DNA from: Escherichia coli
GTDB taxonomy: Bacteria; Pseudomonadota; Gammaproteobacteria; Enterobacterales; Enterobacteriaceae
Length of the DNA stretch: 64,000 nucleotides
Assembly: GCF_003334815.1 (NCBI RefSeq)
Contig: NZ_QOWO01000010.1
Direction: 5' to 3' (one strand)
Under the pieces are notes generated by a model. It was not told the origin of the DNA. It ran no database searches and saw only the letters and a list, made by a program, of their open reading frames with translations. A program made the translations under genes and the position numbers. Positions within the stretch are counted from its first letter, which is position 1. The number at the start of each line of letters is the position of its first letter. Positions 61,814 through 62,423 of this stretch are shown in pieces.

Positions 61814-62423
61814 AGAAAAGGGGTAACACCGATTACCCCATTGATAACCTTTCTTTATCCTCTTTTAAAACATCTTTTTAACGTCAATGATGCCATTGCT
61901 TAGCGTTATCATCAGGTAATCCGTTTGCGGATAACCAAAAATGCAGGTTAATTGTTTTTTTAATAGCGAAATTTTCTATTCATTCGTGATCAAGATCACG
62001 ATGCTGTCGCAATGTAAAAACATTGCAAGAATCAGGTTAAAATCATTTAAATTTACACACGCAACAAATATTGACCTACAAAACATTACACTGGCTATTT
62101 TTCAGAAACTGGACTATCTCACTAGTAAAAACGCTAAATAGCAGAACATATCGCCGTTAAGCCATCACCCCCCTCTCAGTGCAGTGAAAAAATCTGCCGT
62201 TACGTTTTTTGAAAAATTTAACGCTGGATAACATTTCCCGGAATGGTTGAATTCCCCGCCTCAGTTATATGTAACAGATTATTACAAAGGACTTGTCTGA
62301 AAGTGCAAGATAGTGAACATTACCTGCCGTTTCCCCTCCCACTATAACAATTGCGCGTATGTTTTTTATACATAACGCGAGAAAGCACCCCCGTTAATAT
62401 GGGATGTAAAAAAAGAGGTAAAA

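Follow-up and report, generated by a model that had tools for sequence, protein, structure and literature searches.

The 610-bp intergenic region between nth and dtpA of Escherichia coli, at positions 61814-62423 of the window (the whole 64-kb stretch of DNA that was analyzed), is the already known control region of dtpA, consisting of an activator-dependent promoter and a leader. Our best explanation for the whole region, to which we assign a probability of roughly three in four, is that it controls dtpA both transcriptionally and post-transcriptionally, and that it includes a putative fixed-geometry platform upstream of the promoter and a structured leader. Published data mapped onto the sequence show that a weak sigma-70 promoter (TTGTCT/AACATT) fires at ~62328 in dependence on OmpR at -57 to -38, that GadX binds near -153 and CRP binds tightly in vitro at -335.5, and that GcvB targets the mRNA. 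Ahead of the promoter lie ~340 bp of additional conserved DNA that would bind proteins. This array would serve as the platform, bringing together in fixed geometry OmpR, CRP, and further binders with a second OmpR-like site and one or more Lrp-type sites, and may tune the OmpR-dependent promoter to acid signals and to the supply of carbon and leucine/amino acids. Translation and responsiveness to sRNAs would be set by the structured leader. The presence of conserved blocks at exactly fixed spacing across some 20 genera goes beyond the literature; so, as judged from sequence comparison, do further nearly invariant blocks, a conserved putative Lrp-type site next to the CRP site, and a covarying hairpin in the leader.

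Composition and presence of the nth-dtpA gap

The genes at this locus are arranged in the order rsxE, nth, dtpA (= tppB = ydgR), and gstA. According to the annotation, nth occupies 61178-61813 and is followed, after the gap, by the GTG-initiated dtpA at 62424-63926. An earlier reading made from the sequence alone (hereafter the sequence-only reading) had described the gap as unusually long and AT-rich and had proposed that local GC content be computed. This computation confirmed the description: the GC content of the gap is 0.369 (36.9%) versus 0.501 for the entire window, the lowest for a stretch of its length, and equally low values were found in only 3 of ~6,300 sliding 610-bp windows, all 3 of which overlap the gap. 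The gap contains many A- and T-tracts. The palindrome noticed near 61986-61999 is also present, with the arms TCGTGATC (61984-61991) and GATCACGA (61994-62001), and the other inverted repeats are located at 61817-61842 (the hairpin 3' of nth) and 62009-62026 (GCAATGT/ACATTGC). The segment 61780-62440 is 100% identical to that of E. coli K-12 MG1655, and published coordinates were converted by the relation that the MG1655 position equals the window position + 1,650,345. The gap was found in 5,424 of the 5,426 complete E. coli genomes with at least 95% identity, and no annotated feature lies in it.

An OmpR-dependent core promoter

The elements around the promoter are as follows.

62293-62328, plus strand: core sigma-70 promoter, with the -35 element TTGTCT (62293-62298), a 17-bp spacer, and the -10 element AACATT (62316-62321)
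62271-62290 (-57 to -38), plus strand: OmpR box GTAACAGATTATTACAAAGG, identified from ChIP-exo, the tandem repeat, and conservation
62214-62236 (-114 to -92), plus strand: TAAC-repeat block AAATTTAACGCTGGATAACATTT, identity 0.85, a putative OmpR-like site

Mapping of published ChIP-exo distances onto the sequence placed the dtpA transcription start at ~62326-62328, with ~62328 as the main value. The start was back-calculated from the distance columns of the OmpR and GadX ChIP-exo tables, which differ by 2 nt, the GadX table implying the start farther upstream. The 5' UTR is thus ~96 nt in length, and not the long (~610-nt) one that had been suggested. Since a start within ~50 bp of dtpA together with an absence of regulator binding is not what was found, the gap is not an ordinary spacer. 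A consensus promoter scan called no promoter in the gap because the dtpA promoter is too weak for the threshold, which fits a weak, activator-dependent promoter. The segment 62306-62330 is almost invariant across the aligned loci described below. An A-to-T mutation at nth+503/dtpA-108, corresponding to 62316, has been published as having repeatedly arisen in long-term stationary-phase/starvation cultures; it converts the -10 element to TACATT and increases dtpA mRNA by ~23-fold.

The OmpR box is a tandem GTAACA/ATTACA repeat, composed of GTAACAGATT followed by ATTACAAAGG, and ends 2 bp ahead of the -35 element. It therefore exhibits the arrangement of OmpR-activated promoters, namely 10-bp direct repeats in tandem, each with a conserved, GTTACA-like AC core, that adjoin or overlap the -35 element. 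The published OmpR ChIP-exo peak (1710621-1710680 in older MG1655 coordinates, centered at -46.5 from the start and scored as activating, "Act") maps to 62252-62311 and covers the tandem box, whose mean identity is 0.86 over 22 genus-level representatives. A PdtpA-lacZ fusion carrying -201 to +15 requires OmpR, its activity being lost in the delta-ompR strain, and excess OmpR represses it (PMC5175337). These data support the part of the sequence-only reading that proposed OmpR-type regulation of the gap.

The block at 62214-62236 contains two TAAC repeats 10 bp apart and scored 9.1 (rank 32 of 128,000 positions) with an OmpR position weight matrix (PWM) that was built from only seven sites (ompF F1-F4 and ompC C1-C3) and chiefly rewards T-richness. 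This block falls outside the published OmpR peak. For the distal conserved blocks, the PWM gave no assignment.

Conserved blocks at fixed spacing across Enterobacteriaceae

The comparative set comprised 80 dtpA loci from ~20 genera of Enterobacteriaceae, in all of which nth lies upstream. The 71 loci with a gap of 570-640 bp were aligned, and block identities are given as mean pairwise values over the 22 genus-level representatives. In addition to the promoter elements, the aligned region upstream of the start contains the following segments.

61814-61943: nth-proximal segment, poorly conserved, with identity to E. coli of 0.1-0.5
61944-61983 (-384 to -345): distal AT-rich conserved block, identity 0.73
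62079-62123 (-249 to -205): conserved block CAAAACATTACACTGGCTATTTTTCAGAAACTGGACTATCTCACT, identity 0.62 versus 0.34-0.37 in the flanking spacers
62136-62155 (-192 to -173): nearly invariant 20-bp block AAATAGCAGAACATATCGCC, identity 0.80
62165-62185 (near -153): GadX ChIP-exo peak (repressor), located in a variable spacer
62183-62192 (-145 to -136): conserved block AGTGAAAAAA, overlapping a weaker Lrp-like match at 62182-62196

Comparison of the 71 aligned loci revealed a mosaic in which conserved blocks (identity 0.62-0.86) alternate with spacers (0.34-0.48). The blocks are 61944-61983, the CRP half-sites described below, 62079-62123, 62136-62155, 62183-62192, 62214-62236, the OmpR box, the core promoter, and both ends of the leader. 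The identity of the blocks is as high as that of the end of the nth coding sequence, and the identity of the spacers is close to random for AT-rich DNA, a block-and-spacer pattern that points to sequence-specific binders. The distances between successive anchors are 24, 146 (147 in Escherichia), 42, 31, 55, and 40 bp and are constant wherever the anchors were found; for example, the block at 62136-62155 keeps an exact 42-bp distance to another conserved block (block E) in 56 of 56 loci. The 384 bp upstream of the start (61944-62327) differ by no more than 2 bp in length among the loci (382-384 bp). Length variation in the gap is almost entirely confined to 61814-61873, which ranges from 23 to 94 bp with 28 distinct lengths in the 71 loci, and for the dtpA-gstA gap (105 bp in the window) lengths of 99-167 bp were recorded in the same genomes. 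Indels are therefore common where the sequence is unconstrained. A conserved RNA structure upstream of the start was ruled out as the basis of the indel-free region, as all 120-nt windows gave a consensus folding energy of ~0, whichever strand was folded.

In 9 loci from Kosakonia and Phytobacter, the gap is 1,060-1,185 bp long because nth is separated from the control region by a minus-strand gene for a membrane protein (141-143 aa, MNFHPWLNALHI...). In these loci, similarity to E. coli resumes at the block starting at 62136, and extra CRP-like sites are found at approximately -577 and -436. In Kosakonia, too, a CRP-like site has been retained at a similar distance from dtpA, which links the distal module to dtpA.

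The GadX peak was published as 1710534-1710554 in MG1655 version 2 coordinates (PMC4918353 supplement) and was converted by adding 1976 and subtracting 1650345, which gives the window position listed above. A search for the IHF consensus in the gap returned zero matches. A GalR site predicted in silico was rejected as an element of the gap, as it falls inside nth.

We also observed that the motif (A/G)AACAT(T/A) recurs in four conserved blocks and the -10 region. AACAT is found at 62082, 62145, 62230, and 62317, with spacings of 63, 85, and 87 bp, and at 62011-62015 on the opposite strand. The motif resembles the OmpR "b" half-site (GAAACAT/GTTACAT), and its distal copies score low with the full-site PWM.

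A CRP site and a putative Lrp site in the distal module

Two candidate binding sites lie in or next to the distal block.

61985-62000 (center 61992.5, -335.5): CRP-binding site cGTGAtcaagaTCACg, identified from published in vitro binding and conservation
61964-61978, minus strand: Lrp-consensus match TAGAAAATTTCGCTA (putative site), near-palindromic, within the distal block

The palindrome pointed out in the sequence-only reading, GTGATCAAGATCAC, proved to be the core of a published CRP site, ttCGTGAtcaagaTCACGatg. This site, assigned to dtpA with a Kd of 2.1 nM, is among the "novel CRP sites" with Kd below 10 nM in a 2026 Footprint-seq preprint (PMC12871828), and tppB is on the CRP genomic-SELEX target list (PMC3105977). 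cGTGAtcaagaTCACg matches the 22-bp palindrome TGTGA-N6-TCACA at 8 of 10 core positions. Such a pattern is no rarer than chance in the window (29 found versus 27.7 expected), so the case for CRP rests on the binding data and conservation. The half-sites are present with at most 2 core mismatches at the fixed offset in 59 of 78 loci, and the spacer between them is variable. Direct activation by CRP (class I/II) takes place from -41.5, -61.5, -71.5, -82.5, or -92.5 relative to the start. The dtpA site resembles the sites of such promoters in its consensus-quality GTGA-N6-TCAC, nanomolar affinity, and conserved half-sites with a variable spacer, but its center at -335.5 from the sole known start lies far outside this range and, to our knowledge, is not among the positions from which CRP activates directly. 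The promoter thus does not have the layout of a class I/II CRP-dependent promoter.

The putative Lrp site differs from the consensus YAGHAWATTWTDCTR at one position (14/15), which makes it the best of 110 matches in the window, and it is two helical turns from the CRP site. Over the 22 genera, it has a median of 2 mismatches, and a match with at most 3 mismatches occurs in only 2 of 1,432 spacer windows. Three further matches to the Lrp consensus, each with 3 mismatches, were found in the gap, one of them moderately conserved. Jamieson and Higgins are said to have found in 1984 that tppB is leucine-inducible in Salmonella. Moreover, tppB is listed in the published Lrp regulon.

A more far-reaching form of the platform is conceivable, in which the CRP and Lrp-type module (-385 to -329) and the three conserved blocks (-249 to -136) would be locked at precise positions relative to the OmpR-dependent promoter, perhaps through looping or wrapping, and act as a bacterial "enhanceosome" conserved across at least 20 genera. 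We put this form forward tentatively and consider it rather doubtful as a whole.

The distal module might instead contain a second, CRP-dependent promoter, which would produce either an alternative dtpA leader of ~300-390 nt on the plus strand or a short minus-strand transcript toward nth that ends at the hairpin downstream of nth.

61820-61839: GC-rich hairpin GGGGTAAC-ACCG-ATTACCCC, 7 nt past the nth stop codon

A high-affinity CRP site is available for such a promoter, and the conserved block spans precisely the stretch between the CRP site and 61944 to its left, as a minus-strand class II start near 61951 would leave it. Only on the minus strand does a T-run come after the hairpin at 61839-61820; on the nth (plus) strand, the stem gives way to AUUGAUAACC. 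However, no conserved -10 element (TAnnnT) was found at a CRP-compatible distance on either strand of the aligned loci, and the flanking stretches into which such transcripts would extend show poor conservation and no conserved fold. The terminator-like hairpin is kept only in Escherichia, where it shows compensatory changes (TGGGTAA..TTACCCA in E. albertii), and is absent in other genera; the idea of a minus-strand terminator was dropped for this reason, and the hairpin probably marks the end of the rsx-nth operon. No RNA is annotated in the gap, the sole match in an Rfam scan of 61500-62700 was a chance snoRNA (E = 0.8, far below the gathering score), and the accessible part of the Term-seq supplement contains no dtpA-associated 3' end. 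Furthermore, the -10 mutation at 62316 alone lifts the mRNA 23-fold, indicating that the known promoter dominates. We regard a second promoter as unlikely.

A perfect inverted repeat, GCAATGT-AAAA-ACATTGC, is located at 62009-62026, 9 bp downstream of the CRP site; outside Escherichia coli, conservation in other genera is limited to its left arm (AATGT). Its sequence ACATTGCAA occurs also in the ompF F4 region. In E. coli GZ2408C (NZ_CM172481.1), the IS66-family element ISCro1 (tnpA, tnpB, and transposase; ~2.7 kb) is inserted at ~62026 and splits the distal module, with its CRP and Lrp-like sites, from the remaining dtpA control region, providing a natural test of the importance of the module.

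Proposed H-NS-type silencing and coding potential

The low GC content of the gap also suits a different explanation, in which H-NS-type filaments coat the gap and OmpR acts mainly as an anti-silencer. The gap is the lowest-GC 610-bp stretch of the window, its A- and T-tracts are numerous, and OmpR is known to counteract H-NS at other loci. Nevertheless, coating requires AT-richness and not exact blocks at invariant spacing, and the gap is core-genome DNA that was not horizontally acquired. The high-affinity H-NS motif TCGATAAATT is not enriched, with only two 2-mismatch matches in the gap, about the number expected by chance, and our literature search found no report of H-NS binding at dtpA or of hns-dependent dtpA expression. 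Silencing of this type appears improbable, ranking behind the second promoter, and the suggestion of H-NS-type regulation in the sequence-only reading found no support here beyond the low GC content.

The reading frame that had been noted in the gap is the following.

61941-62141, plus strand: ATG-initiated 66-aa open reading frame (ORF), a chance ORF

It is highly improbable that a genuine small protein is encoded by this ORF or by another small ORF of the gap. A 66-codon ATG-initiated frame does exist in E. coli, but only 1 of the 71 aligned loci keeps it open and 6 retain its start codon, and stops break it even within the genus, in E. albertii, E. whittamii, and further Escherichia species. 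The aligned upstream gap shows neither 3-nt periodicity in its conservation nor a stop-free frame common to the genera, and no such gene is included in the RefSeq MG1655 annotation, which includes validated small proteins. The sequence-only reading, which took the ORF as probably a product of chance in AT-rich sequence, was right on this point. The missing common frame and periodicity also rule out a protein-coding basis for the indel-free region.

A structured dtpA leader and its relation to GcvB

Together with the control elements upstream of the start, the preferred reading of the gap includes a structured leader, in and next to which the following elements were distinguished.

62328-62423, plus strand: dtpA 5' UTR, ~96 nt, from the mapped start to the GTG codon
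62354-62379, plus strand: hairpin 1, a 9-bp stem with a 1-nt bulge, conserved in structure and not in sequence
62385-62407, plus strand: hairpin 2, GCACCCCCGUUAAUAUGGGAUGU, conserved in sequence
62431-62450, plus strand: C/A-rich start of the dtpA coding sequence, CUGCAAACCAAAAACCAACU, the best predicted partner of the GcvB R1 seed

Analysis of the leader indicated that it consists of a C-rich 5' end, a C/A-rich single strand, hairpin 1, hairpin 2, an A-rich tract, and the Shine-Dalgarno (SD) sequence, and folding of each genus separately gave the same layout in nearly every genus. RNAalifold, applied to the leader as aligned by MAFFT, recovered the base of hairpin 1 alone because the loops were misaligned, and per-sequence folding was used instead. 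By this approach, hairpin 1 is formed by all 50 distinct orthologous segments with 39 distinct stems. Its median z-score against shuffled sequences is -2.75, with z below -2 in 80%, at a sequence identity of 0.55. Hairpin 2 shows a few one-sided or compensatory changes, such as CCCUG/CGGGG in Salmonella. In addition, CCUC at 62335-62338 is predicted to pair with GAGG of the SD sequence at 62415-62418. As this helix is only 4 bp long and invariant, without covariation, it remains a prediction. In a lesser variant of the tentative enhanceosome reading, the conserved three-helix leader, as modeled here, may represent a new translational control element.

The tppB/dtpA mRNA is a published target of GcvB. 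The predicted duplex between the GcvB R1 seed and 62431-62450 has an energy of -17.6 kcal/mol, a value that 28% of shuffled sequences reach as well and that is not significant, and 62431-62450 is put forward as the candidate for the exact GcvB pairing site. These values come from a windowed prediction, since duplex prediction with the whole length of GcvB was meaningless. As a separate observation, the 3' side of hairpin 2, AUGGGAUGU (62398-62407), resembles the 3' part of the CsrA SELEX consensus, RUACARGGAUGU, and its GGA is paired in the predicted fold.

Comparison with known systems

At ompF, the OmpR sites F1-F3 are located at -100 to -39 and a distal site, F4, at approximately -380 to -350, for which looping has been proposed. 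The dtpA control region is similar to that of ompF in several respects. Both promoters are OmpR-dependent with a poor core and an OmpR box adjoining the -35 element, both are located within a ~600-bp gap ahead of the gene (602 bp for ompF-asnS, MG1655 986983-987584), and in both, conserved or functional elements reach to approximately -380. The dtpA OmpR box matches ompF F4 (GTTACGGAATATTACATTGC) at 15 of 20 positions, and low OmpR levels activate dtpA whereas high levels repress it, as is the case for ompF. In contrast to ompF, dtpA reportedly does not respond to osmolarity (PMC5175337). A single OmpR ChIP-exo peak has been reported for dtpA, and the gap lacks an IHF consensus, which also sets it apart from ompF. 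The element at approximately -335 in dtpA is a CRP site and not an OmpR site. The ompF and ompC site sequences used in this study were checked against the genome, where all of them gave exact matches.

Lrp-type promoters, such as those of ilvIH, gltBDF, and dadAX, carry several Lrp sites across 100-250 bp of upstream sequence. The dtpA region resembles them in its long array of conserved upstream sites, in its one conserved 14/15 match to the Lrp consensus (a putative site), and in the membership of tppB in the Lrp regulon. It differs from them in having one strong and one moderate consensus match, and in that its blocks are not spaced at regular intervals of ~30 bp. The dtpA mRNA, in turn, resembles GcvB targets such as dppA, oppA, and gltI in that it belongs to the GcvB regulon and has C/A-rich single-stranded stretches, at 62339-62352 and 62431-62450. 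As a difference, its leader also carries a covarying hairpin and a possible anti-SD element, neither of which has been described for the dtpA leader.

Significance of the control region

The product of dtpA is the main proton-driven di-/tripeptide importer of E. coli. With ~385 bp of control sequence, a nanomolar CRP site, and blocks at fixed spacing, its promoter could offer a tractable case of the long-distance integration of OmpR, carbon, amino-acid, and acid signals. Mutations in this promoter have been selected time and again in long-term starvation cultures. The nth-ydgR gap (61814-62423) is also a popular "neutral" landing pad, into which large chromosomal insertions and genome-integrated promoter libraries are placed; because conserved regulatory sequence makes up most of the gap, such insertions may alter dtpA expression. 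At the other end of the gene, the sequence following the dtpA stop codon (63927-63990) contains a stem-loop, GCCGCTAAC...GTTAGCGGC, with a T9 run immediately after it, an arrangement that looks like the dtpA terminator.
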